Shown one piece after another: positions 3,820 through 34,082 of a stretch of DNA of 64,000 nucleotides (position 1 is the stretch's first letter; every line of letters starts with the position of its first letter). The notes beneath the pieces were generated by a model. The model ran no database searches. It had not been told where the DNA came from and saw only the letters and a program-made list of their open reading frames with translations. The stretch spans positions 139,583-203,582 of the forward strand of contig CAVZPD010000009.1 in assembly GCA_963777045.1 (NCBI GenBank), read 5' to 3'. Source of the stretch: an uncultured Chloroflexia bacterium (GTDB taxonomy: Bacteria > Chloroflexota > Limnocylindria > QHBO01). Both the position numbers and the translations under genes were made by a program.

Positions 3820-5025
3820 GTGAAGCTTGCAGACCGCATGGAGCGGATCGGGACCGAGACCGCCTTCGAGGCGGCAGCGCGTGCTCGCGCGCTGGAGGCC
3901 ACCGGCCGCGACGTGATCCACCTCGAGATCGGCGAGCCCGATTTCGATACTCCGCGCCACATCAGCGAGGCCGCTTCACGCGGCCTGCTCGAAGAGCGGA
4001 TGACCCACTACACCGGCGCGACCGGCATCCTGCCGCTGCGCGAGGCGATCGTCGCCGACGTGAAGCGCTGGAAGGGGATCGACGCCACGCCCGACCAGGT
4101 CGTCGTCACGCCCGGCGCCAAGCCCATCATGTTCTACGCCATGCTCGCCCTGATCAACGAGGGCGACGAGGTCATCTACCCGAACCCGGGCTTCCCGATC
4201 TACGAGTCGATGGCCCGCTACGTGGGCGGCACGCCGGTCGCGGCACCGCTCCGCGAGGAAGCCGAGTTCCGGATGGACGTGCGCGAGGTCGCGTCGCTGG
4301 TGACCGACCGGACACGGCTCATCGTCATCAACTCGCCGCAGAACCCAACCGGCTCGATCCTCACCCACGACGACATCCGCGAGATCGCCCGCATCGCGGT
4401 CGAGCATGACCTGGTCGTCCTGGCCGATGAGATCTACGGCCGGCTGCAGTACGAGGGGGAGCCGCTCTCCATCGCGACCCTGCCGGGCATGGCCGACCGC
4501 ACGATCACACTGGACGGCTTCAGCAAGACCTTTGCGATGACCGGCTGGCGCCTCGGCTACGGGATCATCCCGGAGTGGCTGCTGCCGACCTACAGCCGCC
4601 TGGTCATCAACAGCGTGAGCTGCACCAACGCCTTCGCCCAGGCCGGGGCGGTCGCGGCGTTGACCGGGCCCCAGGAGGAGCCCGACCGCTTCCGCGAGGA
4701 GTTCATCGCGCGACGCAAGATCATCGTGGACGGGCTCAACGCCATCGACGGCGTCAGCTGCGTCATGCCGCACGGCGCGTTCTACGCGTTCCCGAACGTA
4801 TCGAGCTTCGGGCGGACCAGCGCCGAGATCGCCGATCACCTCCTCTACGACGCCGGCATCTGCACGCTGGCCGGCACGGCCTTCGGGAGCCACGGCGAGG
4901 GTTACCTGCGGCTGTCGTACGCAAACTCGCGCGAGAAGATCAACGCCGCGCTGGAGCGGATCGCCGAGTCGCTGGCACGCCTGGAGCGGACCGGCGAGGT
5001 CGTGACGGCGGGTTCGGCGTCATGA
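3820..5025 (+). CDS. pyridoxal-phosphate-dependent aminotransferase, class I/II (aspartate aminotransferase family)
   Basis: LEIGEPDFDTP, NPGFPIYE, SPQNPTG and FSKTFAMTGWRLGY (PLP-lysine region) are diagnostic. GTG at 3820 is preceded by GAAGAGG (RBS), whereas the upstream in-frame ATG at 3724 would add an atypical extension. Confidence 0.8.
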   Translation: MKLADRMERIGTETAFEAAARARALEATGRDVIHLEIGEPDFDTPRHISEAASRGLLEERMTHYTGATGILPLREAIVADVKRWKGIDATPDQVVVTPGAKPIMFYAMLALINEGDEVIYPNPGFPIYESMARYVGGTPVAAPLREEAEFRMDVREVASLVTDRTRLIVINSPQNPTGSILTHDDIREIARIAVEHDLVVLADEIYGRLQYEGEPLSIATLPGMADRTITLDGFSKTFAMTGWRLGYGIIPEWLLPTYSRLVINSVSCTNAFAQAGAVAALTGPQEEPDRFREEFIARRKIIVDGLNAIDGVSCVMPHGAFYAFPNVSSFGRTSAEIADHLLYDAGICTLAGTAFGSHGEGYLRLSYANSREKINAALERIAESLARLERTGEVVTAGSAS

Positions 5026-7403
5026 CCGCCACCCGACCAGTCGCCGAATCGGCCGACGAACTCTACCAGCGCGCAACCGGCTCGTTCGAGCAGTGGGAGC
5101 TGGTCAAGGACGTACTGGACGAGGCGATCGACCTCACGCTCAACTACCGTCAGTCGGGCCACCCGGGCGGCTCACGCTCGAAGGTGCACCTCTTCCTCTC
5201 GCTCCTGCTCTCCGGCGCCATGCGCTGGGACATCCGCCGCCCGTGGCTGCCCTTCGCGGATCGCTTCGTCCTCTCGGCGGGGCACACCGTGCCGCTCGTC
5301 TACTGCACCCTGGCCGTGCTCAACGAGATCCTCCGAGCGCGCCATGAGCGGAGTGGGGACGAGCGCTTCGCCTTCCCCGATGACGGCGAGTGGGCGCTCA
5401 CCTGGGAGCACCTGCTCACCCTCCGACGCCGTGGCGGCCTGGCCGGCCACGCGGAGATGGAGGGCAAGACGCTCTTCCTGAAGTTCAACACCGGCCCCTC
5501 CGGACACGGCATGCCACCCGCGGCCGGCGAGGCGGCAGCGCTCAAGCTGGCCGGCGCCGGCGAGGTGAAGGTCTTCGCCGTCGAGGGCGAGGGTGGCCTC
5601 ACGCCGGGCGCCAGCCACGAGACGCGGAACACCGCCTGGGGGCTGGGACTCGACAACCTCGTTTTCCTGGTCGACTGGAACGACTACGGGATCGACGACG
5701 TCGCCATCTCGGAGGTCGTCCACGGTGCCCCGGCCGACTGGTTCACGCCGTACGGCTGGCGCATCACCGGCACGGAGCAGGGCTCCGAGTGGGGTCCCGT
5801 CGCCCGTGCCGTCCTGGAGGCGGCCCGTGGCGAGAACCCGGACCACGTCCCGTCCATGGCCTGGTTCAAGACGCGCAAGGGGCGTGGCTACGGCAAGTAC
5901 GACAACAAGAGCCATGGCTCGCCGCACGCCATGAACTCCGAGCCGTTCTGGACGGTGCGCAAGGGGTTCATGGAGCGCCACGGCGTCGAGTACGCGGGCG
6001 TCGACGAGGCCGCGCCATCGGATCCCGGAGAGCTCGAGGCGCAGGCGCGCCACAACTTCGAGGTGGCCATGGGCGTCCTGCGTGCGAACACGCAGGTGGT
6101 GGATGCCATCAGCGACCGCCTCCTGGAGCTGGCGGCATCGGTGCCGGAGCGGGTGGAAGGCTTTCACCTGGGCGGGAACGGCGCCGAGATCTTCAACGAC
6201 TCACGCTTCACCGATGTCTCCGCCTACCCCGCTTCGATGTGGAAGCAGCCCGGAGAGAAGGCCCCCAATCGGGCGGCGCTGGCGACCTGGGGCTCGTGGG
6301 TCAACGCGACCGCGAAGGCGGAGTACGACCGGCCGCTGGTGATCGCCTGCTCGGCCGACCTTGCCGAATCAACGAACATCGCAGGCTTCGCCAAGGACTT
6401 CGAGGAGCTGCCGGGGTGGGGCTGGTACAACCGCGACACGAACCCGCGGGGCGCGCTGCTGCCGCAGGAGATCACCGAGTTCACCAACGCCGGCGTGTCG
6501 GTGGGGATCGCGACGGTCAACCTGGCCGATGATCCCTTCCACGCCTTCAACGGCTTCTGGGCCGCCTGCTCGACCTACGGCTCGTTCTCGTACCTGAAGT
6601 ACGGGCCGATGCGCCTCTTCAGCCAGCTCGCCCAGGACACCGAGCTGAAGGTGGGCAAGGTGATCTGGATCGCCGGACACTCGGGGCCCGAGACCGCCGA
6701 GGACTCGCGCACCCACTTCGGCGTCTTCGCCACCGGCGTCACGCAGCTCTTCCCGGAAGGGCACGTCATCGACCTGCACCCGTGGGAGCACAACGAGGTG
6801 CCCGTCGTCCTCGCCGCCGCGCTGGCCACCGACGTGCCGATCGTGGCGCTGCACCTCACCCGGCCGTCGGTGGAGATTCCGGATCGCGAGAAGCTGGGCA
6901 TGGACTCGCACTTCGCCGCCGCGAAGGGGGCCTACCTGATGCGGCGCGCGGATCCCGCGACACCGTGCGCGGGGACGGTCTACGTGCAGGGGACCATGTC
7001 GACCGCCAACCTGGTCAAGGTCCTGCCACGGCTCGACGAGGAGGGACTGAACGTCCGCGTGGTCGCGGCCATCAGCCCGCAGCTGTTCCGGATGCAGGAC
7101 GCCGCCTACCGCGACGAGATCTGCTCAGCGGCGGACCGCTTCGACGGGATGGCCATCACCAACCGCGCCTTCAAGCTGATGCGCGACTGGGTGGACGGGC
7201 CGATTGCCGAGGAGTACTCGCTCTCCTCCGACTGGGACAATCGCTGGCGCACGGGCGGCACGGTCGACGAGGTGATCGACGAGGCGCACCTCGGCCCTGA
7301 CCACATCCTCGAGGGGATACGTCGCTACGTCGCGGACCGCGACGCTCGTCTGCGACGCCTGCGCGAGCTCGTCGCGTCCGTCGAGCAGGGGCACGGCGGC
7401 TAG
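5022..7403 (+). CDS. transketolase-family thiamine-diphosphate enzyme (794 aa)
   Basis: The N-terminus carries SGHPGGSRS...DRFVLSAGH (compare TK GHPG...DRFVLSNGH). It also has the EGEGGLTPGASHE ThDP/Mg site and IAGHSGPETAEDSRTHFG (compare TK THDSIGLGEDGPTHQ). ATG 5022 overlaps the aminotransferase stop (ATGA); the 4575..5021 portion of the track ORF is an out-of-frame overlap with the aminotransferase. Confidence 0.75.
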   Translation: MTATRPVAESADELYQRATGSFEQWELVKDVLDEAIDLTLNYRQSGHPGGSRSKVHLFLSLLLSGAMRWDIRRPWLPFADRFVLSAGHTVPLVYCTLAVLNEILRARHERSGDERFAFPDDGEWALTWEHLLTLRRRGGLAGHAEMEGKTLFLKFNTGPSGHGMPPAAGEAAALKLAGAGEVKVFAVEGEGGLTPGASHETRNTAWGLGLDNLVFLVDWNDYGIDDVAISEVVHGAPADWFTPYGWRITGTEQGSEWGPVARAVLEAARGENPDHVPSMAWFKTRKGRGYGKYDNKSHGSPHAMNSEPFWTVRKGFMERHGVEYAGVDEAAPSDPGELEAQARHNFEVAMGVLRANTQVVDAISDRLLELAASVPERVEGFHLGGNGAEIFNDSRFTDVSAYPASMWKQPGEKAPNRAALATWGSWVNATAKAEYDRPLVIACSADLAESTNIAGFAKDFEELPGWGWYNRDTNPRGALLPQEITEFTNAGVSVGIATVNLADDPFHAFNGFWAACSTYGSFSYLKYGPMRLFSQLAQDTELKVGKVIWIAGHSGPETAEDSRTHFGVFATGVTQLFPEGHVIDLHPWEHNEVPVVLAAALATDVPIVALHLTRPSVEIPDREKLGMDSHFAAAKGAYLMRRADPATPCAGTVYVQGTMSTANLVKVLPRLDEEGLNVRVVAAISPQLFRMQDAAYRDEICSAADRFDGMAITNRAFKLMRDWVDGPIAEEYSLSSDWDNRWRTGGTVDEVIDEAHLGPDHILEGIRRYVADRDARLRRLRELVASVEQGHGG

Positions 7404-7409
7404 CGGCGC

Positions 7410-7619
7410 ATGCCCGACCTGGAGCCCCACCCCTACGAGCACCAGCGCCCCCGGCGCCCGCGAATCCTGCCGAAGCGGCTGAAACCGCCGCCGGACCGCC
7501 AGGACCCGCCGGACCTGCGCTGGATGCTCTTCGTGGGGATCGCGCTGGCGGCGGTGATGGCGGCCCTCGCCGCTCCGTACATCGTGGGCTACCTGCTGCA
7601 GGCGGCGACGGGCGGCTAG
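7410..7619 (+). CDS. small hypothetical protein with a C-terminal TM helix
   Basis: 69 aa, starting 7 nt after the TK-like stop, with strong GC3 bias. Pro/Arg-rich N-terminus, then WMLFVGIALAAVMAALAAPYIVGYLL. Confidence 0.3.
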   Translation: MPDLEPHPYEHQRPRRPRILPKRLKPPPDRQDPPDLRWMLFVGIALAAVMAALAAPYIVGYLLQAATGG

Positions 7620-8197
7620 GGCCGCTCGCCGCCGAGCTCGCGCACGACGCGTGCAGGCGTGCCCACCGCCAGCATGCCGGCGGGAATGTCGCGCGTCACG
7701 ACGCTTCCCGCACCGATGACGCTGTCCGAACCGATGCTCACCCCGGGGCAGACGATGGCGCCGCCACCCAGCCACACGTTGTCGCCGATGGCGATCGGTT
7801 GGGCCGACTCCCACCTGGATCGGCGCTCCGCCGGATTCAGCGGGTGCGTCGGCGTCAGCAGCTGGACATAGGGGCCGACCTGGACATCGTCACCAATGGT
7901 GACGGTCGCGACGTCGAGGCAGACGAGGCCGTAGTTGATGAAGGTCCGAGCCCCCACGGAGGTCTGGTAGCCGTAGTCGCAGCGGAACGGGGGCCGGATC
8001 TCGCTGCCCTCGCCGAACGCGCCGAGCAGCTCGCGCAGGAGCGCGTGGCGCGCGCCGCGGTCGACCGGATCCATGGTGTTGTAGCGATGCAGGAGCCGCT
8101 GGGCGCGATCCAGCTCGGAGGCCAGCTCGGGATCGTCCGCGATGTAGGGGTCCCCGGCCAGCATCCGCTCGCGCATCGACCGCTCGTCGGGGGGCAT
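7616..8197 (-). CDS. maltose/galactoside O-acetyltransferase family (left-handed beta-helix hexapeptide acyltransferase)
   Basis: Mac N-terminal motif (RERMLAGDPYIADDPEL...) followed by hexapeptide repeats IGDDVQVGP...IGDNVWLGGGAIVCPGVSIGSDSVIGAGSVV. Confidence 0.75.
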   Translation of the reverse strand: MPPDERSMRERMLAGDPYIADDPELASELDRAQRLLHRYNTMDPVDRGARHALLRELLGAFGEGSEIRPPFRCDYGYQTSVGARTFINYGLVCLDVATVTIGDDVQVGPYVQLLTPTHPLNPAERRSRWESAQPIAIGDNVWLGGGAIVCPGVSIGSDSVIGAGSVVTRDIPAGMLAVGTPARVVRELGGERP

Positions 8198-8202
8198 CGG
8201 TC

Positions 8203-9030
8203 CTACGCCTGCCGCGCGGTCCAGACCAGGACCCGCTCGCCGTCGACCTTGAGCGCGGGACGGATCAGCGGCGGCAGCTCGATGGGGTAGGCCCGTTCAT
8301 CGCCGCGGTAGCCGCCGGTGACGCGCCAGCGGGACCGGCCGTTGGCGAGCTCTCCGGCGAGGTCGAAGCTCGCACCGTGGCAGGGGCAGCGCAGGTCCTC
8401 GAACGCCGGGCGGAACTGGAGCGTGCAGCCCATGTGGGTGCAGACCGACGAGAGTGCCCGGAGCTGTCCACCGTCGTTGACGACGTAGCCGTCGAAGGCG
8501 GCCGTCGAGAAGCGGATGGCGGAGCCGGGCGGGAGCTCGGCCACCGTTGCAACCGCGACCCACTCGCCATCCGACCCCACCAGGTCGCTGCCGTCGTCCC
8601 AGATGCCCGGCCCGCCGCCCGGGGCCACCGGTCGCAGCATCGTGGCCCCCACCGCGCCCGCAGCGAGCCCGGCCGCCCCGATCAGGCCGCCGGTCAGCAG
8701 CTGACGGCGCGTGATGCGGACCCGCGACACTTCGCCAACCCCGGACCTGACCGGCGGAGGGACGCGAACGGCGTCGATGCCCTCGTCGGCGGCACGCATG
8801 CGCCGGCGCAGCTGGTCCACGAAGGCGGGATCCGGCGCGCTCGCCGCCGGGTCGGCCGTGGCAGCGATCTCGGCCGCCAGGCGCGCCATCTCCGCCTCGT
8901 CGTGATCGCCGACGTCGGCGGCAGAGGGCCGCTCCCCGGCCAGCAGGGCGTCGAGGTAGCGGTCGATCCGGTCCGCCGAGGCGGACTCGTCCGGCGTCGG
9001 ACGAAGGTCGCGCTCGCGTTCGTCAGCCAT
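8203..9030 (-). CDS. membrane-anchored Rieske [2Fe-2S] domain protein sitting in the anti-sigma position of an ECF sigma operon
   Basis: The C-terminus carries Rieske boxes CTHMGC...CPCHGASF. One TM/Tat-like segment (RRQLLTGGLIGAAGLAAGAVGA) follows a ~115-aa acidic N-terminal region. ATG 9030 overlaps the sigma stop by 8 nt. Confidence 0.6.
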   Translation of the reverse strand: MADERERDLRPTPDESASADRIDRYLDALLAGERPSAADVGDHDEAEMARLAAEIAATADPAASAPDPAFVDQLRRRMRAADEGIDAVRVPPPVRSGVGEVSRVRITRRQLLTGGLIGAAGLAAGAVGATMLRPVAPGGGPGIWDDGSDLVGSDGEWVAVATVAELPPGSAIRFSTAAFDGYVVNDGGQLRALSSVCTHMGCTLQFRPAFEDLRCPCHGASFDLAGELANGRSRWRVTGGYRGDERAYPIELPPLIRPALKVDGERVLVWTARQA

Positions 9031-9559
9031 CGTCGTCTCCCAGCAGCGCTGCCCTGCGCAGGGCACGGTACTGCAGGATCTTCGCATTGCCGTGGCTCAC
9101 GCCCATTCGCTCGGCGGTCTCGGCCACGGAGAGCCGGTGCAGGAAGCGCAGCTCCAGGACGCGCGCGTATCGCTCCGGCAGGCGTTCGAGGAGCGCACGG
9201 ACCCTGGTCGCCGATCTCTCGTCGTCGGGCTCCGGCTGGTCGCCGGAGGCGGGATCCATCGGCTCCCAGCCGGGAGCGACGTGGTCGCTGCCGATGACGG
9301 GCAAGCGGTAGAAGGCGCGCCAGTAGTCGGCGATGGCGTTCTGGGCTACGCGGTAGAGCCAGCTCACGATCTGCCGATCATCGCGGGTGGTATCAAGCTG
9401 TTCGACGGCGCGGGTGAACACCTGCGCCGTGAGGTCTTCGGCATCGGGTCGGTTTCCTACGCGCGCATGGACGAACCGGTAGATCGCGACGACGTTGGCG
9501 TCGTAGATCTCCTCGAAGCGGCCGCGCTGGTCGGCGGGGCGGGCAACGGGGTCGGCCAT
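9023..9559 (-). CDS. RNA polymerase ECF sigma factor (sigma-70 family, group 4)
   Basis: 179 aa from MADPVARP. Sigma-2 region FEEIYDANVVAIYRFVHARVGNRPDAEDLTAQVF...WLYRVAQNAI and sigma-4 LPERYARVLELRFLHRLSVAETAERMGVSHGNAKILQYRALRR. The longer track ORF (to 9835) overlaps the upstream gene. Confidence 0.8.
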   Translation of the reverse strand: MADPVARPADQRGRFEEIYDANVVAIYRFVHARVGNRPDAEDLTAQVFTRAVEQLDTTRDDRQIVSWLYRVAQNAIADYWRAFYRLPVIGSDHVAPGWEPMDPASGDQPEPDDERSATRVRALLERLPERYARVLELRFLHRLSVAETAERMGVSHGNAKILQYRALRRAALLGDDDG

Positions 9560-9590
9560 CGTGTCTGCTACGCGGCCGGTTACAGCGACG

Positions 9591-10094
9591 CTACTCGTCT
9601 CCGCGCGGGCGGAGGGGTGCGAGGTAGGCGGCGACCTCCTCCAGAAAGCGCGCATCGGTCTCGTCGTAGGCCGACGGATCCGAGCCGTCGATGTCGATCT
9701 CGCCCACGACCTGGCCCTCCGCCAGGATTGGCACCACGATCTCGCTGCGGGTGGTGGCGAAGCAGGCCAGGTAGCGGGGATCGCCATTGACGTCGTCCAC
9801 GATCTCGGTCTGGCCCGATGACGCCGCCGCCCCACAGATGCCCTCGCCCAGGGGGATGCGTGTGTGCTCGGTCGCCTCCGGGCCGATCCACGGCCCGAGC
9901 ACGAGCTCGCTGGCGGGCTCGTCGAGCCAGTAGACGCCGACCCAGTCGTAGTGGCTGAAGCGGTGGTGGAGCTCCTCGACCACCCGCTGGGCAGCCGCCT
10001 CCGGTCCAGGCGCCTCGGCGATCAGGGCACGGATCTGGTTCAGGGCGTCACCGTGCTCGACCTGGTGCTCCTCGATGCTGACCGGGTGGCTCAC
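9591..10094 (-). CDS. GAF domain protein, free methionine-(R)-sulfoxide reductase-like
   Basis: HYDWVGVYWLDE...ELVLGPW...IPLGEGICGAAASSGQTEIVDDVNGDPRYLACFATTRSEIVVPI matches the fRMsr/GAF fold. The GTG start at 10094 avoids overlap with the upstream gene. Confidence 0.6.
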   Translation of the reverse strand: MSHPVSIEEHQVEHGDALNQIRALIAEAPGPEAAAQRVVEELHHRFSHYDWVGVYWLDEPASELVLGPWIGPEATEHTRIPLGEGICGAAASSGQTEIVDDVNGDPRYLACFATTRSEIVVPILAEGQVVGEIDIDGSDPSAYDETDARFLEEVAAYLAPLRPRGDE

Positions 10095-10098
10095 GGTG

Positions 10099-10500
10099 CT
10101 ACTGCTGCGAGGCCCAGCGATCGGCCCAGCGGTCGATGCCGGTGATCGCCCGGCGCAGGTCGGCACCCTTCTGCGTCAGCGAGTACTCGACCCACGGCGG
10201 CGTCTCGGAGACGAGCAGCCGATCGACGAGGCCCTCGTCCTCCAGCATCTTGAGGCGCTGGGAGAGGGTGGCCGAATTCGCGCCGCCCAGGGCGTCCTGC
10301 AGCTCGCAGAAGCGCTGGGTCTGCTGACCGAGCTCGCGCACGATGCGCATCACCCACTTCTGACCCAGGATCGTGAGGGCGGCGGTGGCGGCGCACTCGG
10401 CACGCTGGGCGGCCGCGCGCCGTTCGGCCCGGGACCGGTGCGTCCCATTGGCGTGTCCGTTGGTCGCGCCGGCCTGCGGCGACGGTTGCCCGGGGTCCAT
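10099..10500 (-). CDS. HxlR-family winged-helix transcriptional regulator
   Basis: AALTILGQKWVMRIVRELGQQTQRFCELQDALGGANSATLSQRLKMLEDEGLVDRLLVSETPPWVEYSLTQKG is the canonical HxlR/YodB-type domain. Start taken at the internal Met (MDPGQ...). Confidence 0.7.
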   Translation of the reverse strand: MDPGQPSPQAGATNGHANGTHRSRAERRAAAQRAECAATAALTILGQKWVMRIVRELGQQTQRFCELQDALGGANSATLSQRLKMLEDEGLVDRLLVSETPPWVEYSLTQKGADLRRAITGIDRWADRWASQQ

Positions 10501-10557: not shown

Positions 10558-11049
10558 CTACGCCTCGCGCAGCTCCTCCACCTCGCCCAGGTTGACGATG
10601 ACCACCTCGTGGCGCGCCTCGCCGGCATCGCTCGCGATGACCGCATCGGTCAGGGGCAGGAAGGGCTGTGTGGCGCGCAGGAAGAGGTCGTCTTCGTACC
10701 CCGGCCGCAGGTGCGCGGTGCCGGTGACGATGTACTGCCCGATGCGAATGACGACCTGCTGCGTCTGTCGGTGCAGGCGCTTCTCCGGCGGGCTCAGGTG
10801 TGGTGGCGGGACGACCAGCAGCACGCTCTTCGGAGCCAGGCTCATCCAGTTTTCAGGCGCGGCAGCGTCGCCACCCTCGGGCAGGAATGGGAGCTCCTCT
10901 CCGCGCTGCAGGATGTCCGTGGTCCGCTCGGTGCTCGCCCGGACGTGGCCCGCGACCTCGATATCTCGGGTGTAGACGCGCATCGGCTCGAGCGCGGGTT
11001 CGTCGGCGGCTTCGGCGGTCTCCGCTTGGCGTCGGAAGAGTCGATCCAT
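10558..11049 (-). CDS. hypothetical protein
   Basis: 163-aa ORF from MDRLFRRQ with coding-like GC3. Divergent from ccmA; no recognisable motif. Confidence 0.35.
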   Translation of the reverse strand: MDRLFRRQAETAEAADEPALEPMRVYTRDIEVAGHVRASTERTTDILQRGEELPFLPEGGDAAAPENWMSLAPKSVLLVVPPPHLSPPEKRLHRQTQQVVIRIGQYIVTGTAHLRPGYEDDLFLRATQPFLPLTDAVIASDAGEARHEVVIVNLGEVEELREA

Positions 11050-11251
11050 GGCAGGTCCTCTCGGCAGCGTCGCCATTCTGCCCCGCCCGCCGCCGCGACC
11101 ACAAGGCGTCAGAGGTACCACCCAGGCGTAGACCGGGACCCGGCAGTCCCGTTCGACCTCTTCTGGCTGCGGTCGTGCTCAGCGCGCATTTGACGCTCCT
11201 GTGGGGAGTCCGCATAGTTGCGGGACCCGCTGCAGCCCCGCTCGATCGAGC

Positions 11252-12019
11252 ATGCCCCAGACCACCATCTTCTCCGCACTTCCGAACAGCCCGCTGGTCC
11301 CGATCCCGGCCGTGGCGACCCACGATGTCGCCCGGCTCTTCGGTGGCAGCGCCGCGCTCGCCGGCGTGTCGCTCAGCGTGGAGTCGGGACGGCTGGTGAC
11401 GCTGGTCGGGCCGAACGGCGCGGGCAAGACGACCCTGCTGCGCATCCTGGCGACCTCCCTGCGCCCGACCTTCGGCTCGGCCTTGGTCGACGGCATCGAC
11501 GTGGTGGCCCGCCCCGAGCTGGTGCGCGGCCGCGTCGCCTTCCTCTCCCACGCCACCGGCCTGTACGACGACCTGACGGCCGAGGAGAACCTGCGCTTCG
11601 CCGCCACCATGCTTCGCCGGACCGATGCTGACGCTCTCGTGCCCGCCACGCTGGCCGAGGTCGGCCTGACCCTCGACGCGGACCGACGCGTGCGCGGCTT
11701 CTCGGCCGGCATGCGCCGCCGCCTGGCACTGGCGCGGATGCTGCTGGCGGAGCCGTCGCTCGTCCTGCTCGACGAGCCGCACGCCGCCCTCGACGCGGCG
11801 GGAATGGACCTCGTCGATCGCCTCCTCACTCGCTGGAGGGAGCGGGGGGCGACGGTCCTGGTCGCGTCGCACCACGCCGACCGCATCATGGACGTGGCCG
11901 ATGGCTGGGCGCGACTCGACGGCGGCCTGCTGGCCGAGACCGGCGGCGCCGGGATCGCGGCGATCCCTCCGGCCATGGAGCCGAGACCGGCTCCGGCGAC
12001 GGCGATGGCGGACCGATGA
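11252..12019 (+). CDS. ccmA: heme exporter ATP-binding protein CcmA (ABC ATPase)
   Basis: Walker A GPNGAGKTT, ABC signature FSAGMRRR, Walker B LVLLDEP, H-loop ASHH. First gene of a ccmABCDEFGH series. Confidence 0.8.
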   Translation: MPQTTIFSALPNSPLVPIPAVATHDVARLFGGSAALAGVSLSVESGRLVTLVGPNGAGKTTLLRILATSLRPTFGSALVDGIDVVARPELVRGRVAFLSHATGLYDDLTAEENLRFAATMLRRTDADALVPATLAEVGLTLDADRRVRGFSAGMRRRLALARMLLAEPSLVLLDEPHAALDAAGMDLVDRLLTRWRERGATVLVASHHADRIMDVADGWARLDGGLLAETGGAGIAAIPPAMEPRPAPATAMADR

Positions 12020-12705
12020 GCACCGCGCGCGCCGAGCTGACGATCGCCTGGGCCATCGCCCGCAAGGACGCCCTGGCCGAGCTGCGGGGCAGGCAGGCGG
12101 CAGGCTCCACGCTCTTCTTCGCCGCGCTGGTCCTGCTGCTCTTCGGCTTCGCGCTCGGCCCGGACTCGCGCAGGCTGGCCGAGGCGGCGCCCGGACTCCT
12201 CTGGCTGGCCATCGTCTTCGGCGGGCTGCTGACCGTCGCGCGATTGCACCAGATCGAGACCGATGACGACGCGCTCGACCAGCTGGCGCGCTACCCCGTC
12301 GATCGGCGAGCGATCTACCTCGGCAAGGCCCTGGCCGGCCTGTTGGCGATGGCCGTCCTGGGCGGCGTGCTGCTGCCGGTCGTCGGGATCATGTACTCGG
12401 TCGACCTCCTGGTGGCGCTGCCCGGCCTGTTGCTGACGCTGGCGCTGGGCGCCACCGGCTTCGCTGCGGTGGGGACCTTCTACGCCGGGGTGACCGTCCG
12501 CATGCGCGCGCGGGAGGTGATGCTGCCGCTGCTCATGCTGCCGGTGATCGCCCCGCTGCTGCTCGCCGCGGTGAAGGCGACCGGCGCGGCCCTCGCCGGC
12601 GACCCGCTGGGGGAGTACTGGTCCTGGCTGCAGCTGCTGGCCGGATTCGACATCGTCATGCTGGTGGCCGGTGCTGCCGGTTACGGCTTCCTGCTGGAGG
12701 AGTGA
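12016..12705 (+). CDS. ccmB: heme exporter protein CcmB
   Basis: Six-TM ~228-aa protein with the CcmB-type N-terminus (ELTIAWAIARKDALAELRG...). ATGA overlap with ccmA. Confidence 0.8.
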   Translation: MSTARAELTIAWAIARKDALAELRGRQAAGSTLFFAALVLLLFGFALGPDSRRLAEAAPGLLWLAIVFGGLLTVARLHQIETDDDALDQLARYPVDRRAIYLGKALAGLLAMAVLGGVLLPVVGIMYSVDLLVALPGLLLTLALGATGFAAVGTFYAGVTVRMRAREVMLPLLMLPVIAPLLLAAVKATGAALAGDPLGEYWSWLQLLAGFDIVMLVAGAAGYGFLLEE

Positions 12706-13445
12706 TGAAGACCCGCATCCTTGGCGTCGCGGCGGTGCTGGCGGTGGTGGCGGCGGGCGCCAACGCGCTCTTCATCGTCCCGGCCGACCTCAACCAGGGC
12801 GATGCGCAGCGGATCATGTACGTCCACGTGCCGTCGGCCTGGCTCGGCTACCTCTCGTTCGGGGTCACGGCACTGGCCGGCATCGGCTACCTGTGGAAGC
12901 GCGACCTGCGGCTGGACGCCATCGCCCTGTCGGCTGCCGAGATGGGGGTCATGTTCACCGCCTTCGCCATCTGGGGCGGGATGATGTGGGCGCGCCCGAT
13001 CTGGGGCGTCTTCTGGCAGTGGGAGGATCCGCGGCTCACCACCACCGCCCTGCTGCTGGCGCTCTACGCCGGCTACCTCCTCTTCCGGCGCCTGACCGAT
13101 GATCCGCACCGCCGTGCGGTGCGTGCGGCGGTGGTCGGCCTGGTCGCTGCGGTCGACATTCCGATCGTCCACTTCAGCGTCGAATGGTGGCGCGGCCTGC
13201 ACCAGGGGCCGACGATCGGCTCACCCGGGCGCCTGCTCAACCCGGCAGCCCCTTCCCAGTTCGTCATCGCGCTGGTCGCCATGGTGCTGGCCTTCACGCT
13301 GGCGTGGGTGTGGCTCATGATCCGTCGCTACCAGCTGGCCAGGATGCAGTGGCAGTTGGAGGAGCACGGACGGATGGGCCGCCTCTCGGCAGCGCGACGC
13401 GCCTCGGCGGCATCGGTCCAGGCGTCCTCGGAGACAGCGCCATGA
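12702..13445 (+). CDS. ccmC: heme exporter protein CcmC
   Basis: RIMYVHVPSAW...W...GMMWARPIWGVFWQWEDPRLTTT contains the WWD-type Trp-rich heme-handling motif of CcmC. Overlaps ccmB stop. Confidence 0.85.
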   Translation: MMKTRILGVAAVLAVVAAGANALFIVPADLNQGDAQRIMYVHVPSAWLGYLSFGVTALAGIGYLWKRDLRLDAIALSAAEMGVMFTAFAIWGGMMWARPIWGVFWQWEDPRLTTTALLLALYAGYLLFRRLTDDPHRRAVRAAVVGLVAAVDIPIVHFSVEWWRGLHQGPTIGSPGRLLNPAAPSQFVIALVAMVLAFTLAWVWLMIRRYQLARMQWQLEEHGRMGRLSAARRASAASVQASSETAP

Positions 13446-13603
13446 CTGATGTCTGGTTCGTGATCGCCGGCTGGGCAGTGATCGTCGGCGGCGCCGGGCT
13501 CTACGCCTTCACGCTGCTCGGGCGCCTGCAGGCGGCCAGGGAGCGCTCCCTGCGCATCCGACGCGCGTCGGACGAGGCTCCGCTCGACGAGGGGCGCGCG
13601 TGA
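13442..13603 (+). CDS. ccmD: heme exporter protein CcmD
   Basis: 53-aa single-TM peptide (MTDVWFVIAGWAVIVGGAGLYAFTLLGRLQAARER...) overlapping the ccmC stop (ATGA) and the ccmE start, as in canonical ccm operons. Confidence 0.6.
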   Translation: MTDVWFVIAGWAVIVGGAGLYAFTLLGRLQAARERSLRIRRASDEAPLDEGRA

Positions 13604-14052
13604 CCGCTGCCCGGCCGATTGCCGCGCCGGTACCGCCGCGCCGCCGCTGGGGGCTGCTGCTGGGCAGCGCCGTGGTGGCCGCCGTGATCGCCTGGCTGGC
13701 GTTCGGCGGCATCGGTGATGCACTCGTCTACTACCAGACGCCCACCGAGCTGCTCGCCCGGCAGGATCCGATCGGCCAGGCCGTGCGCCTCGGCGGCCAG
13801 GTCAAGGCGGGGAGCATCGAGCGGACGACCAGCCACATCACCTTCGTGCTGACCGACGGCACCACCGACGTGACCGTCGTCAGCGACTCCCTGCCCACCT
13901 CGAGCTTCCGCGAGGGGAGCGGGGCCGTCGTGGAGGGATCGCTCAACGCCCAGGGCGCCTTCGAAGCGCAGCAGATCCTCGTGAAGCACGACGAGAACTA
14001 CGTGGCGCCGAGCGAGGGCGCGGTGCCCTCGCACATCCCGGACGGCGGATGA
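13600..14052 (+). CDS. ccmE: cytochrome c-type biogenesis heme chaperone CcmE
   Basis: N-terminal TM, OB-fold region and the heme-binding His motif ILVKHDENYVAP (compare LAKHDENY). Confidence 0.85.
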   Translation: MTAARPIAAPVPPRRRWGLLLGSAVVAAVIAWLAFGGIGDALVYYQTPTELLARQDPIGQAVRLGGQVKAGSIERTTSHITFVLTDGTTDVTVVSDSLPTSSFREGSGAVVEGSLNAQGAFEAQQILVKHDENYVAPSEGAVPSHIPDGG

Positions 14053-16070
14053 TCCCGACGCTCGGTCACAGCGCGGTCGTGGTGGGCCTCGCCGCGACGC
14101 TCTTCGCGGCGGCTGCCTTCGGGCTGGGGGCGCGCCGCGACGACCCCGCGCTGGTCACGCTCGGCCGCCGCGCAATGTACGCGGCATTCGGGTTGGCGGC
14201 GGTCGCCAGCGCGGCAATGGTCTTCGCGCTGCTCACCCATGACTTCAGCGTCGAGTACGTTGCGAACAACAACGCCACCACCACGCCGCCCTTCTACTCG
14301 GTCATCTCGCTGTGGGCCGCCCTGGAGGGATCGATCCTCTTCTGGACCCTGCTCGCCACGGGTTGGTCGGCACTCGTGCTGTGGCGCTTCCGCGACCGGC
14401 TCCCGGCGCTGGTGCCGTGGGTCGGCGTCACGCTCGCCCTGGTCGCCGCCTTCTTCTTCGCCGTCATGATCTGGCCGGGGGACCCCTTCGTGCGCACGAC
14501 GCCGGTGGCCGCGCAGGGGAGCGGGCCGAACGCGCTGCTGCAGAACCACCCGTTCATGGGCCTCCACCCGCCGCTCCTCTACCTCGGCTACACCGGCATG
14601 GCCATCCCGTTCGCCTTCGGCATGGCGGCGCTCATCGCGCGCCGGACCGATGAGGCCTGGCTGGGAGTCGTCCGCCGCTGGACGCTGGTGCCATGGATCC
14701 TGCTGACCGCCGGGATCGTGGCCGGCGCCTGGTGGAGCTACGAGGTGCTGGGCTGGGGCGGCTACTGGGCCTGGGATCCGGTCGAGAACGCCGCGCTGCT
14801 GCCGTGGCTGACAGCGACCGCCTTCATCCACTCGTCGATGGTTGCCGAGCGGCGCGGCACGCTGCGCGTCTGGACCCACGCACTCGTGATCGCCACCTTC
14901 ACCCTGACCCTGGTGGGCACCTTCCTGACGCGCTCGGGGGTGGTGCAGTCGGTCCACTCCTTCACCGCGTCGGGCATCGGCCCATGGTTCGCGGGGGCGA
15001 TCCTGCTCACCCTCGTGGTGGCGCTGGGCCTGCTGGTCTGGCGGCTGCCGATCCTCGGCGACACGCGCGCGCCGGGACAGCCCATCAGCCGGGAAGGCGC
15101 GTTCCTCTTCAACAACCTCCTCTTCCTGGGAGTGACCTTCGCCGTCCTGTTCGGGACGCTCTACCCCGTCATCCGCCAGCTGACCAACGGCGAGCGGGTG
15201 AGCCTCGGCGCGCCGTGGTTCAACCAGGTCAACGCTCCCATCTTCGTCGCGCTGCTCTTCCTGATGGGCGTGGGCCCGGCCCTGCCGTGGGGTGGCGCCG
15301 GCTGGCGAACGCTGCGTGACCGCTTCGCGGCACCGGTGATCGTCGGCTCGCTGCTGGTGGTGGCCGGCTGGCTCCTGGGCCTCGGCGAGCTGGTGGTCCT
15401 TGTGGCGCTCTGGATGGCCGGCTTCGTGGTGGCGATCATGGGCGAGGAGGTCGTCCGCGGGGCGTGGGCGCGGTCGCGTGCGCGCGAGGAGGCGCTGCCG
15501 GCGGCCGCGTGGCGGCTCGCGACTCGAAACCGGCGCCGCTACGGCGGCTACCTGGTCCACGCCGGGATCGCCGTCATGGCCGTCGCCATCTCGGTGTCGG
15601 CCTCGATGGGTCGCGACACCACGGCGACCATCTCGCCCGGCGAGAGCATGCAGCTGGGCGACTACACGCTGACCAACCGCCAGCTGGTGACCGAGCCGCT
15701 GGCGTCGGACCCGCGCGTGATCGAGACGAGGGCCGAGCTGACGCTGGCCGGCCCGCAGTCGGGGGCCGTGGCGCCGGCACTGCGCGACTATCCGAACTCC
15801 GCATCGCTCATCGCGACGCCCGCTGTGCGCACCGCCGCCGGCGAGGACCTCTACATCACCCTCCTCGGTGCCGACCCGGCCACCGGCGAGGTCACCCTGC
15901 ACGTCTTCATCAACCCGCTCGTCGCCTGGATCTGGATCGGCGGCGGCATCGTGGCCCTCGGCGGCGTCTTCGCCGCGTGGCCCGATCGCCGGCGTCGGGC
16001 CCTCGCAGCCGCTGGCGCTCCGGAGCCCGCCCCGCTCCCCCTGGGCGCCACCGGGAGTGCGGAGCGGTGA
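14049..16070 (+). CDS. ccmF: cytochrome c-type biogenesis protein CcmF (heme lyase component)
   Basis: 673-aa polytopic protein with the WSYEVLGWGGYWAWDPVENAALLPWL WWD domain and conserved His residues. Overlaps the ccmE stop. Confidence 0.9.
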   Translation: MIPTLGHSAVVVGLAATLFAAAAFGLGARRDDPALVTLGRRAMYAAFGLAAVASAAMVFALLTHDFSVEYVANNNATTTPPFYSVISLWAALEGSILFWTLLATGWSALVLWRFRDRLPALVPWVGVTLALVAAFFFAVMIWPGDPFVRTTPVAAQGSGPNALLQNHPFMGLHPPLLYLGYTGMAIPFAFGMAALIARRTDEAWLGVVRRWTLVPWILLTAGIVAGAWWSYEVLGWGGYWAWDPVENAALLPWLTATAFIHSSMVAERRGTLRVWTHALVIATFTLTLVGTFLTRSGVVQSVHSFTASGIGPWFAGAILLTLVVALGLLVWRLPILGDTRAPGQPISREGAFLFNNLLFLGVTFAVLFGTLYPVIRQLTNGERVSLGAPWFNQVNAPIFVALLFLMGVGPALPWGGAGWRTLRDRFAAPVIVGSLLVVAGWLLGLGELVVLVALWMAGFVVAIMGEEVVRGAWARSRAREEALPAAAWRLATRNRRRYGGYLVHAGIAVMAVAISVSASMGRDTTATISPGESMQLGDYTLTNRQLVTEPLASDPRVIETRAELTLAGPQSGAVAPALRDYPNSASLIATPAVRTAAGEDLYITLLGADPATGEVTLHVFINPLVAWIWIGGGIVALGGVFAAWPDRRRRALAAAGAPEPAPLPLGATGSAER

Positions 16071-16588
16071 GCCGCAGGAGCGTCCGCTGGGCCCTGCTGC
16101 CGGTGGTGGTGCTGCCGCTGGCATGGCTGCTGGTGGCGAGCCTCTCCCGGCCGGTCCCCACCGCCGGCGATGCGGCTCCGGCCTTCAGCCTGGTCTCGAT
16201 CGACGGCGAGGTCGTCAGCTCGGAGAGCCTGGCCGGCCGCCCGTACCTGCTCAACTTCTGGGCGAGCTGGTGCCTCCCCTCCTGCGCCGATGAGCAGCCG
16301 GTGCTGATGGAGGCCCGGCAACGGTACGGCGACGAGGTGACGATCGTGGGTGTCCTCTACCGCGATACCCCGGCGGCCGCGCGCGACTTCCTCGCGACGT
16401 ACGGCGACGGCGGCTGGCTGCAGCTCGCGGACCCCGGCGAGCGGCTCGCCACCGCGTGGGGCGTGAGTGGGCCGCCGGAGTCCTACCTGGTCGGTGCCGA
16501 TGGCGTGGTCGTCGCGCGTCGCATCGGTCCCCTGACGAGCGACGAGATCGACGCGTTCTTCAGCCAGGCAATGGAGCAGGGATCGTGA
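16067..16588 (+). CDS. ccmG: thiol:disulfide interchange protein CcmG/DsbE (thioredoxin-like)
   Basis: TM anchor then NFWASWCLPSC (WCxxC) and GVSGPPESYLV. GTG 16067 overlaps the ccmF stop; the longer track ORF 15464.. is an out-of-frame overlap with ccmF. Confidence 0.8.
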   Translation: MSRRSVRWALLPVVVLPLAWLLVASLSRPVPTAGDAAPAFSLVSIDGEVVSSESLAGRPYLLNFWASWCLPSCADEQPVLMEARQRYGDEVTIVGVLYRDTPAAARDFLATYGDGGWLQLADPGERLATAWGVSGPPESYLVGADGVVVARRIGPLTSDEIDAFFSQAMEQGS

Positions 16589-17061
16589 GGCGCGGCCTCC
16601 TGCTTGGGTCGGGCCTGGCGCTGCTCGCCGCCGCGGCGGTGCTCGTGGCGCTCGCCGTTGCGCCGCAGGCGGAGCCGACGGCCGCGGAGCGGGTGCGCTC
16701 GCTGGCGGCCGAGATGCGCTGTCCCGACTGCCAGTCGCTCTCCGTGGCCGAGTCGAGAACGCAGGCGGCCACCGCGATCCACCAGGAGATCGAAGGGCAG
16801 GTGGCGGCCGGCAAGAGCGACGACGAGATCCGGGACTACTTCGTCGCCAGCTACGGCGAGTGGATCCTGCTGGCGCCTCCCGAGCCGCTGGTCTGGCTGC
16901 TCCCGGCCGCCGCACTGCTGGCCGGGCTGGGGGTCCTGTTGGCCTGGTACGCGACCGGCAGCCGGAGGGCGGCACTCCCGGCCGCTGATGGCGGCTCGCA
17001 GCCCGTCGCCGAGGCGGATCGGCGTCGCGTCCGCGAAGAGCTGGAGGCGCTCGATGGCTGA
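16585..17061 (+). CDS. ccmH: cytochrome c-type biogenesis protein CcmH (NrfF-like)
   Basis: Signal/TM, LAAEMRCPDCQSLSVAES (LRCxxC motif), DDEIRDYFVASYGEWILLAP, C-terminal TM. GTG overlaps the ccmG stop. Confidence 0.75.
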   Translation: MRRGLLLGSGLALLAAAAVLVALAVAPQAEPTAAERVRSLAAEMRCPDCQSLSVAESRTQAATAIHQEIEGQVAAGKSDDEIRDYFVASYGEWILLAPPEPLVWLLPAAALLAGLGVLLAWYATGSRRAALPAADGGSQPVAEADRRRVREELEALDG

Positions 17062-17932
17062 GCTGCTGCTCCTCCTCTTCGTGATGGCCACCGTCGGCCT
17101 GCTGATCGCCTGGCCCCTGCTCGACCGCCAGCCGCCGAGCACGCCGCTGGCCGATCCCGATCGCGAGGCGGCCGAGGTCCGTCATCGGCTTGCCCTCGAG
17201 ACGCTGCGCGACATCGAGGCGGATCGGCGCGCCGGCTCACTCGACGAGCCGACCTACCTATCCAGGCGCGCGGAGGCCGAGGCGTGGGCGGCGGGCACGC
17301 TGAGCGGAGGCGACCCGGCGCCCGAGCCACGGCGGGCGACAGCGCGCGGAAGCGCTCGGGCATCGGCTGCCACGCTGGGCGTCGCGCTGGTGGCGCTGGT
17401 GCTGGTGGGGTTCGCCGTCCCGGCCCCGCTGGGTATCGGCGAGCGCACGGTGACGAACCAGGCGCTGGCCGATGCACAGGCCGCGGAGGATGCGCGCCAG
17501 GCACGCATCGCGCAGCTGCTCGACCAGCTGCAGGCCGACCAGCGGAATGCCGACATCTACTCGCAGCTGGCCGATGCGTACCTCGCCGGCCAGACCTCGG
17601 CCGACCTGCAGAAGGGTGCGGTGGCCCTGCTGGCCCTGCTGGCGATCGAGCCGGAGAACGCTTCGGCCTATCGCCGCCTGATCACCGCCTACATGAATGC
17701 CGGCGACTGGACCGATGCGCGCTCCGCCGTCGACGCGTACGCCGGGGTGGCGGAGCCTGACGAGCCGGATATCCCCTTCTTCCGCGGGTTGCTCGCCCTC
17801 CGCGCCGATGACGACCCGGCGGAGGCGGTGCGCCAGTTCGATCGGTTCCTGGAGCTGGCTCCCGACGACGGCCGGGTGCAGATGGTGACTACCCTGCGCG
17901 AGCAGGCGTCGGAGCAGGCGGCCGGAACGTAG
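17054..17932 (+). CDS. CcmI/CycH-like TPR-repeat cytochrome c biogenesis accessory protein (putative)
   Basis: Begins 5 nt before the ccmH stop. N-terminal TM helix, a second TM, then Ala/Leu-rich TPR-like repeats (IYSQLADAYLAGQ..., YRRLITAYMNAGDW...). Confidence 0.45.
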   Translation: MAELLLLLFVMATVGLLIAWPLLDRQPPSTPLADPDREAAEVRHRLALETLRDIEADRRAGSLDEPTYLSRRAEAEAWAAGTLSGGDPAPEPRRATARGSARASAATLGVALVALVLVGFAVPAPLGIGERTVTNQALADAQAAEDARQARIAQLLDQLQADQRNADIYSQLADAYLAGQTSADLQKGAVALLALLAIEPENASAYRRLITAYMNAGDWTDARSAVDAYAGVAEPDEPDIPFFRGLLALRADDDPAEAVRQFDRFLELAPDDGRVQMVTTLREQASEQAAGT

Positions 17933-19513: not shown

Positions 19514-20226
19514 GCGGGTGCCGGCCGCTCCGGACGCGGGGCGAAGGCGTAGCCGATGCCGCGCACCGTTCGGAAGTAGTTGTGGCCATCATGCGCGCGG
19601 AGCTTCGTGCGCAGCCACGAGACGTGGACGTCCACCGTTCGCGTGTCACCCTCGTAGTCGACCCCCCACAGGCGCGCCAGCAGCTGGTCGCGCGTGAAGA
19701 TGCGGCCGGGGTTGCCGGCGAGATGGGCGAGGAGATCGAACTCGCGGGTCGTCAGGGTCAGGCGCGCCTCGCCGAAGGTCGCCTCGCGACGGGACGTGTC
19801 GATCTGCAGCTCTCCGGACTGGATCAGGGTCGCACCCGGCTCCTCGCTCGCCGCGCCCTGCCGGCGGCGGCGCAGGACCGCCTCGATTCTTGCCAGCAGC
19901 TCGGGTCGCGAGAAGGGCTTGGCAACGTAGTCATCGGCTCCGACCTTGAGCCCGACCACCCGGTCGATCTCGTCGCCCTTGGCCGAGAGCACGATCACCG
20001 GGGTGTTGACGCCTTCCGAACGGACGACGCGCAGCACCTCCAACCCGCTCATGCCCGGCAGCATGATGTCGAGCAGCACGAGGTCCAGCCCGGTGTCGCG
20101 GGCCGCCTCCAGCGCCTGCTCGCCATCGACCGCGACCCGCACCTCGTACCCCTCGCGCATCAGGTTGAAAGTGAGCGCCTGCCGCAGGGTCCGATCGTCC
20201 TCGACCAGCAGAATGCGGCGTTTCAT
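19510..20226 (-). CDS. phoP: OmpR-family response regulator, PhoB/PhoP-like
   Basis: Receiver (LLVEDD...DLVLLDIMLPGMSG...KGDEID) plus winged-helix output (REFDLLAHLAGNPGRIFTRDQLL...VDVHVSWLRTKL). Directly downstream of phoU. Confidence 0.8.
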   Translation of the reverse strand: MKRRILLVEDDRTLRQALTFNLMREGYEVRVAVDGEQALEAARDTGLDLVLLDIMLPGMSGLEVLRVVRSEGVNTPVIVLSAKGDEIDRVVGLKVGADDYVAKPFSRPELLARIEAVLRRRRQGAASEEPGATLIQSGELQIDTSRREATFGEARLTLTTREFDLLAHLAGNPGRIFTRDQLLARLWGVDYEGDTRTVDVHVSWLRTKLRAHDGHNYFRTVRGIGYAFAPRPERPAPA

Positions 20227-32442: not shown

Positions 32443-32501
32443 CGGGCATCCTCAATGGATTGGTTACCGTCCCGTACGCGCCCGGTTACCGCTGCGCGGA
32501 C

Positions 32502-34082
<1,581 letters not shown>

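Follow-up and report, generated by a model that had tools for sequence, protein, structure and literature searches.

Release of a sigma factor of the extracytoplasmic function (ECF) type is tied to an oxidative or redox signal by the zinc-binding anti-sigma (ZAS) proteins RsrA, ChrR, and RslA, each encoded beside its sigma factor (SigR, SigE, and SigL, respectively) and each binding zinc at an HxxxCxxC site in a cytoplasmic domain of four helices. RsmA, which acts on SigM of Streptomyces coelicolor, is a soluble cytoplasmic [2Fe-2S] anti-sigma factor of the HATPase (RsbW/SpoIIAB) type with a group 3 sigma factor as its partner, and we know of no other iron-sulfur anti-sigma factor. Among Rieske proteins, the actinobacterial bc1 subunit QcrA, in which two transmembrane helices come first, uses an internal twin-arginine motif to export its C-terminal Rieske domain after cofactor insertion in the cytoplasm. 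Here we describe a gene pair in a 64-kb stretch of DNA (hereafter the window; ∼70% G+C) from a member of the Chloroflexota, class Candidatus Limnocylindria, in which the gene for an ECF sigma factor is directly followed by the gene for a Rieske membrane protein. We consider it fairly likely that this protein is an anti-sigma factor with a Rieske sensor and that the two form a cognate pair.

A similar gene arrangement is found in Streptomyces for sigma-BldN and its class III anti-sigma factor RsbN. In RsbN, three helices are joined by flexible linkers, with α1-α2 on σ4 and the long α3 clasped between σ2 and σ4, and a membrane span and an extracellular domain follow these helices (PMC6101532). 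The first-pass annotation of the window had placed the Rieske protein in a five-gene operon as a candidate redox-sensing anti-sigma factor. Our searches of the literature on Rieske, twin-arginine translocation (Tat), or iron-sulfur proteins in combination with anti-sigma or ECF sigma factors, and on sigma factors of Limnocylindria, found no such system described and turned up no anti-sigma factor that has a Rieske sensor domain or is inserted by Tat. The ECF reclassification paper makes no mention of Rieske, Tat, or Chloroflexi.

Anatomy of the sigma factor and the Rieske protein

The sigma factor gene (9023-9559, minus strand) encodes 178 aa with matches to Sigma70_r2 (PF04542, E 5e-10) and Sigma70_r4_2 (PF08281, E 1e-11), and also to Sigma70_r4 (PF04545). 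We took ECF (group 4) sigma-70 factors to be proteins of about 170-200 aa with σ2 and σ4 domains only, and the window sigma factor has just these two domains and a TIGR02937 score of 77.9 bits against a cut-off of 42.9. Its best-scoring named family is the BldN-type TIGR02952, of which it is not a member since the score of 102.5 bits lies below the curated cut-off of 206.45. The best match in the Protein Data Bank (PDB) is sigma-BldN (6dxo_A, E 1.4e-20). When we inspected the BldN residues that contact RsbN, we found Y19, D20, and F48 to be identical in the window sigma factor and L52 to be replaced by Val.

The Rieske gene (8203-9030, minus strand; 275 aa; PF00355 E 2.6e-13), our candidate anti-sigma gene, begins inside the end of the sigma gene. 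Within the octamer ATGGCTGA (9030-9023), the Rieske ATG at 9030 overlaps the sigma TGA (9025-9023) by 8 nt, as the first-pass annotation had reported. A longer open reading frame (ORF) that would start at the ATG at 9087 was rejected because homologues open with MADE or MPDE and the ATGnnTGA junction is kept.

Three parts can be distinguished in the encoded protein. The first is a predicted cytoplasmic N-domain (residues 1-95; 8746-9030, minus strand) that is acidic (pI 4.46 for residues 1-100) and contains no cysteine or zinc motif. AlphaFold2 models place helices at residues 13-30, 43-58, and 68-89, joined by low-confidence linkers; modeled alone, the domain shows no compact fold (pTM 0.30). 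In an alignment of 80 sequences, R21, R34, P35, A49, A53, E54, P66, D67, A69, F70, Q73, L74, R77, R79, A81, and D82 are invariant. Invariant or near-invariant in both this alignment and one of 16 sequences are R21, Y25, L26, L29, L30, R34-P-S, E45-A-E-M-A, P66-D-x-A-F, Q73-L-R, R77, R79, and A81-D.

The second part (8638-8715, minus strand) is a predicted Tat signal-anchor made up of the internal twin-arginine motif T107-R-R-Q-L-L (TRRQLL, residues 107-112) and the sole hydrophobic segment of the protein (residues 111-129), which is Gly/Ala-rich as in Tat signals and is poorly modeled by AlphaFold2. Residues 101-133 include five Arg/Lys and no acidic residue, with the arginines on the N-terminal side of the hydrophobic segment. 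The Rieske protein therefore has the S/T-R-R-x-F/L-L motif and the moderately hydrophobic stretch after it by which Tat signals are recognized, and its match to PF10518 is weak (E 0.08-0.46). Both R108 and R109 are invariant in the 80 sequences, and the RR pair is likewise invariant in a distant clade described below. On two long contigs of that clade (L090 and L091), tatC lies near the cluster, which is circumstantial evidence for Tat-dependent export. There is a single hydrophobic peak, and the predicted topology is N-in, single-pass, and C-out. This agrees with the layout given by the first-pass annotation, an acidic N-terminal region followed by an RR motif with a membrane segment and a C-terminal Rieske domain, except that the cytoplasmic region measures ∼107 aa and not the ∼115 aa stated there.

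The third part is the extracytoplasmic Rieske [2Fe-2S] domain (residues 150-275; 8206-8583, minus strand), which was recognized by PF00355, AlphaFold2 (pLDDT >90), and Foldseek. The protein has only four cysteines, C197, C202, C215, and C217, all in the motif pair CTHMGC...CPCHGASF and none in residues 1-196. By sequence and model, the CxH...CxxH boxes of a Rieske fold are present as C197-T-H199 and C215-P-C-H218, and each box has the second cysteine (C202 and C217) of the bc1/b6f type (CTHxGC/CPCHG). The cluster ligands C197, H199, C215, and H218 and the disulfide pair C202/C217 are all invariant in the 16 and the 80 sequences. Foldseek matched the domain to 8hn2 (E 2.8e-9), PetC3 (5cxm, target TM-score 0.82), and AioB, and its nearest relatives are small electron-transfer Rieske proteins, namely Chlorobaculum 8HN2, Synechocystis PetC3 5CXM, AioB, and Kuenenia kuste4569.

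The source annotations call the protein a "cytochrome b6-f complex iron-sulfur subunit" or a "nitrite reductase/ring-hydroxylating ferredoxin subunit". Together with the bc1/b6f-type cluster boxes, these names would fit an ordinary Rieske subunit of a bc/b6f-type complex or of arsenite oxidase, or the ferredoxin of a ring-hydroxylating oxygenase, which is also what the first-pass annotation had set against its own proposal. However, all scores against the curated NCBIfam families fall far under the cut-offs (PetC, 37.5 against 250; QcrA, 27.6 against 275; AioB, 27.1 against 95.7; Rieske_proteo, 32.4 against 97.4), and no partner gene for cytochrome b, AioA/molybdopterin protein, or oxygenase was found in any locus examined. 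For these two reasons, it is very improbable that the protein is an ordinary respiratory or oxygenase subunit. Moreover, the families in question have no conserved 100-aa N-domain.

Distribution of the sigma-Rieske pair and reuse of its N-domain

Full-length homologues of the Rieske protein number in the hundreds (56-90% identity), and the named ones come from Candidatus Limnocylindria or Chloroflexota. A scan of one genome per species yielded 485 relatives, and the best 80 loci of the 485 were analyzed. Every Limnocylindria locus that has upstream DNA (76/76) has the sigma gene immediately upstream of the Rieske gene. The ATGnnTGA 8-nt junction is kept in 73 of 77 pairs, and the four exceptions resemble frameshifted assemblies.

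When a profile of the N-domain alone was searched against 1.84 billion representatives, just 50 proteins were returned. They include a distant group of proteins, 217-246 residues long, that come from Candidatus Dormibacterota and other Chloroflexota and have the same order of N-domain, RR motif, one hydrophobic segment, and Rieske domain. Profile-profile comparison by hhalign relates the window N-domain to those of the Dormibacterota type with 99% probability (E 5e-18). In distant loci, the gene with the N-domain overlaps the stop codon of an ECF sigma gene by 4 nt (L083, L085-87, L090, and L091), and in the Dormibacterota-type contigs a cupredoxin gene follows the Rieske gene. A metagenome scan with this group found the sigma gene in all 41 loci in which the N-domain is present and the upstream DNA is at least 450 nt long, and weaker matches that aligned to the Rieske domain alone had no sigma gene in 17 of 25 cases. 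The sigma and Rieske genes are thus translationally coupled by overlapping stop and start codons and have been inherited together in Limnocylindria, Dormibacterota, and further clades of Chloroflexota. The first-pass annotation had asked how widely the pair occurs; it is universal in a family that spans two phylum-level lineages.

The N-domain also occurs on a protein of another kind. P0159 (632 aa; L083:2724-4622) bears it by hhalign (92.8%, E 4e-7), and there it is followed by a membrane segment and an unrelated, non-Rieske ectodomain (FTP/DUF4901). The gene overlaps the stop codon of a sigma gene whose product is 37% identical to the window sigma factor and has its RVGNRxDAEDLT signature. 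Because P0159 pairs the N-domain and a homologous sigma factor without a Rieske domain, the N-domain appears to travel with the sigma factor and not with the Rieske domain. A search with the P0159 N-terminus found no further non-Rieske carriers of the N-domain. TGTAACCCCCCGACGAC lies ahead of the P0159 operon, whose first two genes encode unknown exported proteins.

How the N-domain relates to described anti-sigma classes was examined by sequence and by model. It does not have the features of class I or ZAS domains, as it contains no HxxxCxxC, gives no zf-HC2 or RskA-type match, and is predicted to form three helices, not four. Its predicted architecture is that of class III (RsbN), with three linker-joined helices in a single-pass membrane protein whose gene follows that of a BldN-like sigma factor.

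Several points count against an anti-sigma function. Searches of Pfam families, including anti-sigma families, with N-domains of several clades gave noise only at E values up to 10 (YciZ, Rnk_N). A PDB profile search with the N-domain gave chance matches only (E of at least 0.3) and did not match RsbN, and Foldseek found nothing below E 4 when the N-domain model was compared with the PDB. Homology to RsbN in sequence or fold was tested and not found, so that the modeled three-helix likeness is topological only. The BldN contact residues shared by the window sigma factor are weak evidence, being common in ECF σ2 domains generally. Furthermore, the modularity of the N-domain has one protein, P0159, behind it, and we infer the binding of the sigma factor, the signal, how the protein is exported, and how release occurs. 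On the other side stand the universal overlapping adjacency, the N-in/C-out anatomy, the RsbN-like three helices, and the reuse of the N-domain in P0159. Taken together, the indirect evidence for the anti-sigma reading is strong and supports what the first-pass annotation had suggested.

Upstream regulators and a shared promoter-like element

Upstream of the pair in the window lie genes for an HxlR-family regulator (10099-10500, minus strand; PF01638 E 1.9e-24) and a single-domain, fRMsr-like GAF protein (9591-10094, minus strand; PF01590 E 2.5e-16, also PF13185), the latter starting with a GTG 4 nt past the hxlR stop codon. The HxlR protein is RrpB-like, below the NCBIfam cut-off. Judged by its sequence, it has the winged helix and the Cys before GxKW of a thiol regulator, with Cys-x8-LGxKW in at least 54 of 69 homologues and RFCEL in 68 of 69. 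The GAF protein shows the cysteine motifs GICG (73/74) and [YHF][LI]AC (65/74); it received no NCBIfam family call, and it is missing what we take to be the third cysteine of Escherichia coli fRMsr.

These genes raise the possibility that the sigma factor is controlled mainly in the cytoplasm, by HxlR and the GAF protein under oxidative stress, and that the Rieske protein is incidental. The candidate redox cysteines of both proteins are conserved, and among the Limnocylindria loci hxlR precedes the sigma gene in 68 of 81 and the GAF gene is present in that position in 73 of 81. However, we found the two genes in Limnocylindria loci only. Both are absent from the Dormibacterota-type and other distant loci examined, which retain the sigma-Rieske pair and the promoter-like element described below. 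Two Limnocylindria loci (L015 and L032) keep the pair and the element with no hxlR upstream, and no domain for binding a sigma factor or DNA is present in the GAF protein. We therefore regard cytoplasmic control as improbable; HxlR and the fRMsr-like GAF protein are a Limnocylindria-specific addition upstream of the sigma-Rieske pair. The oxidative-stress circuit that the first-pass annotation had drawn around these two genes does not hold up across the family, in which the conserved partners are cupredoxin and PF03640 lipoproteins. Such partners speak for electron transfer outside the cytoplasm, or for metal status, no less than for oxidative stress.

In L015 and L032, which are rearranged, the GAF gene lies downstream of the Rieske gene and hxlR has no match. 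There, a divergent gene with a CHRD domain has a copy of the element ahead of it on the opposite strand.

The promoter-like element GTAACCGGCCGCGTA (9569-9583, minus strand) lies in the 31-nt gap between the GAF and sigma genes, with its last base 9 nt before the sigma ATG. Its consensus, CGTAAC-N6-CGTA, is found 9-13 nt before the sigma ATG in 74 Limnocylindria loci with a sigma match, including some with no GAF or hxlR gene upstream. A second copy occurs between ccmA and hxlR in 33 loci, ahead of a lipoprotein cupredoxin gene (in two rearranged loci, ahead of the CHRD gene). The loci, 726 kb in total, contain 107 exact copies, every one at a sigma or cupredoxin/CHRD position, against ∼1.7 that we estimate from base composition. 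In the window, where 0.05 exact copies would be expected, there is a second one, GTAACCGGGCGCGTA (32475-32489, minus strand), whose last base lies 32 nt before the gene for a PF03640 (Lipoprotein_15) lipoprotein (31861-32442, minus strand; PF03640 E 6e-29). This lipoprotein is a probable member of the sigma-Rieske regulon. Its gene, of the "secreted repeat of unknown function" type, sits just downstream of pckA (32502-34082).

Of 46 loci in the distant clades, 40 have a relaxed form, GTA[AT]C-N7/8-GTA, no more than 160 nt upstream of the start of the sigma gene. A second copy there is located past the Rieske stop codon and before a PF03640 lipoprotein, cupredoxin, or DoxX-like gene, often 9-12 nt from the start codon, and one clade has GTATC at both copies. 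As shared in this way, the element establishes, as far as sequence can, that the sigma-Rieske operon and the neighboring genes for exported proteins are co-regulated. Two further observations concern its form. The compact two-block pattern GTAAC-N6/7-[CG]GTA runs across loci L001-L081 and L090-L147, which are very distant clades, and in the GTATC clade (L098-L113 and L144) the second copy stands before a gene for a DoxX-like membrane protein (∼218 aa) and not for a lipoprotein.

GTAAC and CGTA are the classic -35 and -10 words of ECF promoters. In the element, the two blocks are only 6-7 bp apart, ∼10 bp short of canonical ECF spacing. Published searches for ECF promoters assume spacers of 15-18 bp (PMC7776599). 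We considered several other explanations for the element. A canonical promoter was rejected since no GTAAC-N14-18-CGTA occurs in the window and no block at -35 distance is conserved among 204 sites, whose anchored information profile holds no third conserved block. A scan found no sigma70-type promoter overlapping the element, and an inverted-repeat operator was rejected because the base after CGTA is not conserved and the halves are not mirrored. The sequence GCGTCAAAT, which matches the -35 word of a sigma70-like promoter on the ccm operon side of the window (TTGACG-17-CATAGT, 11190-11218), is conserved beside the cupredoxin-site element in other loci; it was rejected as the -35 of that element because its distance varies from 12 to 16 nt and TTGACG is on the ccmA strand. 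One-mismatch copies in the window were discarded as well, their number being at chance level and the copy at 48367 lying inside a long ORF. Lastly, HxlR is not the factor that reads the element, because the element is kept in distant clades from which hxlR is absent.

The co-inherited sigma factor is thus left as the obvious candidate reader. The short distance to the start codons implies that the transcripts are leaderless or near-leaderless, starting just past CGTA. As a further point against our reading, the 6-7 bp spacing misfits a canonical ECF promoter, and the assignment of the regulon to the sigma factor is not secure.

The cupredoxin genes bear on another explanation, in which the Rieske protein is an extracytoplasmic electron carrier and redox partner of the cupredoxin, and so a target of the sigma factor and not its regulator. 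The N-domain would then serve in cluster insertion, in Tat proofreading of the precursor, or in docking to a membrane complex. Between ccmA and hxlR, 56 related loci have a gene for a lipoprotein cupredoxin (e.g. L013:2717-3160) with the type-1 copper ligands H...C..H..M; no cupredoxin gene is present anywhere in the 64-kb window. In favor of an electron carrier, the cupredoxin gene comes immediately after the Rieske gene in Dormibacterota-type loci and has the upstream element in common with the pair in Limnocylindria. No Rieske ligand or disulfide cysteine is missing, and electron-transfer Rieske proteins are nearest in fold. The N-domain also lacks similarity to known anti-sigma domains. 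However, a mere target is unlikely to keep the sigma stop/start overlap in all ∼117 loci while cupredoxin and PF03640 genes move, and in P0159 the N-domain sits on a non-Rieske, non-cofactor ectodomain beside a homologous sigma factor. The two roles are also not exclusive, since a sensor may exchange electrons with the cupredoxin. We consider it unlikely, if the most credible of the alternatives, that the Rieske protein is an electron carrier under the control of the sigma factor.

The remaining genes around the pair can be described briefly. The five minus-strand genes that the first-pass annotation had read as one operon are all present and closely spaced or overlapping, with domain matches well past chance (E 1e-10 to 1e-24). 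The fifth is a maltose-O-acetyltransferase-like gene (7616-8197, minus strand; Mac and Hexapep domains) that starts 5 nt from the Rieske stop codon. It does not belong to the unit, because a homologue is absent from all 80 related loci; among these 80 it is unique to this genome, and it probably reached its place between the Rieske gene and a convergent transketolase-like gene by local insertion. Since the 31-nt GAF-sigma gap carries a conserved promoter-like element, a single five-gene operon is not established. The transketolase-like ORF (4575-7403, plus strand) is very long, with transketolase N-terminal and pyrimidine-binding domains; its true start may be later than the first GTG. Its counterpart in L001 (L001:7029-10601) encodes 1190 aa and also matches an aminotransferase domain.

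On the other side, ccmA (11201-12019, plus strand) is the first gene of a divergent cytochrome c maturation operon, with ccmABC-EFH reaching to ∼17061. The operon (11190-17932, plus strand) is a complete system I set of ccmA, B, C, E, F, and H with a TPR protein, and just past it lie genes for an OmpR-type response regulator and a histidine kinase (18455-20226, minus strand). Divergent ccmA/ccmB are conserved neighbors, occurring in 51-52 related loci. A DUF6812-like ORF (10558-11121, minus strand), barely at the Pfam cut-off and present in none of the 80 related loci, sits where relatives have the cupredoxin gene.

Proposed mechanism and comparison with described systems

In the mechanism that we propose, the N-domain would stay in the cytoplasm and hold the sigma factor inactive in the manner of class III RsbN. 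The Rieske domain would receive its [2Fe-2S] cluster in the cytoplasm and then be exported by Tat, with the uncleaved signal serving as membrane anchor. A change at the exposed cluster would free the sigma factor, by conformational change or proteolysis; candidate triggers are the oxidation state, loss of the cluster to oxidants or copper, failed assembly or export, and electron exchange with a cupredoxin. The freed sigma factor would transcribe its own operon and the neighboring cupredoxin, PF03640 lipoprotein, and DoxX-like genes, all of which have GTAAC-N6/7-CGTA. In Limnocylindria, the pair would have gained two upstream genes, for an HxlR-type thiol regulator and an fRMsr-like GAF protein.

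A more speculative and rather doubtful extension joins the element to the sensor. The sigma family would use a compact promoter with a GTAAC/GTATC -35 word 6-7 bp from a CGTA -10 word, a -23/-11 geometry one helical turn below every described ECF promoter, and many of its targets would be leaderless. The anti-sigma sensor, requiring [2Fe-2S] loading and Tat export, would report on iron-sulfur assembly or on the integrity of the exposed cluster, with oxidant or copper attack as the damage reported, and would switch on blue-copper proteins and PF03640 lipoproteins.

If the anti-sigma reading is right, the sensor type is new, and the N-domain probably represents a new anti-sigma domain family or else a remote class III relative outside Streptomyces. 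The reading would mean that, in uncultured soil bacteria, the output of exported copper proteins and lipoproteins follows the state of an iron-sulfur cluster outside the membrane, and it would give a first regulatory handle on abundant uncultured soil lineages (Limnocylindria and Dormibacterota). The candidate regulon of cupredoxin, PF03640 lipoproteins, and DoxX-like proteins, placed beside cytochrome c maturation genes, links iron-sulfur, copper, and heme proteins of the cell envelope. The PF03640 family, which is widespread and of unknown function, gains a regulatory context alongside cupredoxins. Since the element escapes standard ECF promoter searches with their 15-18 bp spacers, it points to a new promoter geometry or an unrecognized second factor.

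Set beside described systems, the locus probably encodes an ECF sigma factor together with an anti-sigma factor in which the sensor domain is new, insertion probably depends on Tat, and the sigma-binding domain is unclassified. It resembles sigma-BldN/RsbN of Streptomyces (PDB 6DXO) in that the anti-sigma gene comes directly after the ECF sigma gene and in the predicted layout, with three helices in the cytoplasm, a single membrane span, and a C-terminal domain on the outer side; the window sigma factor also keeps the Y19, D20, and F48 that contact RsbN α3. It differs in that the sigma factor falls below the BldN-family cut-off, the N-domain has no detected sequence similarity, and the RsbN ectodomain is not Rieske and has no Tat signal described. 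RsbN itself has been reported from Streptomyces only.

With RsrA, ChrR, and RslA, the window protein would share the principle of a redox-coupled anti-sigma factor encoded beside its sigma factor. Unlike them, it has an N-domain with no Cys/His motif or zf-HC2 match and with three predicted helices, and its putative redox center is an external [2Fe-2S] cluster. As a candidate, it would join RsmA in placing an iron-sulfur cluster on an anti-sigma factor; it differs from RsmA in being a membrane protein with a Rieske fold and an ECF sigma factor as partner. Like QcrA, it has a twin-arginine motif that is not N-terminal and lies ahead of the Rieske domain, but its signal comes after a soluble cytoplasmic domain, and a cytochrome b partner is absent. 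Finally, PetC3 (5CXM), 8HN2, kuste4569 (9RK4), and AioB share with it the minimal Rieske fold of ∼110-130 residues with CTHxGC/CPCH boxes, and AioB also aligns across the twin-arginine signal region. What sets the window protein apart from these small Rieske proteins is a conserved 100-residue cytoplasmic domain before the signal, an adjacent sigma factor, and a conserved insertion, NGRxRWRxxGGYxGDxxAY, past the second cluster box.

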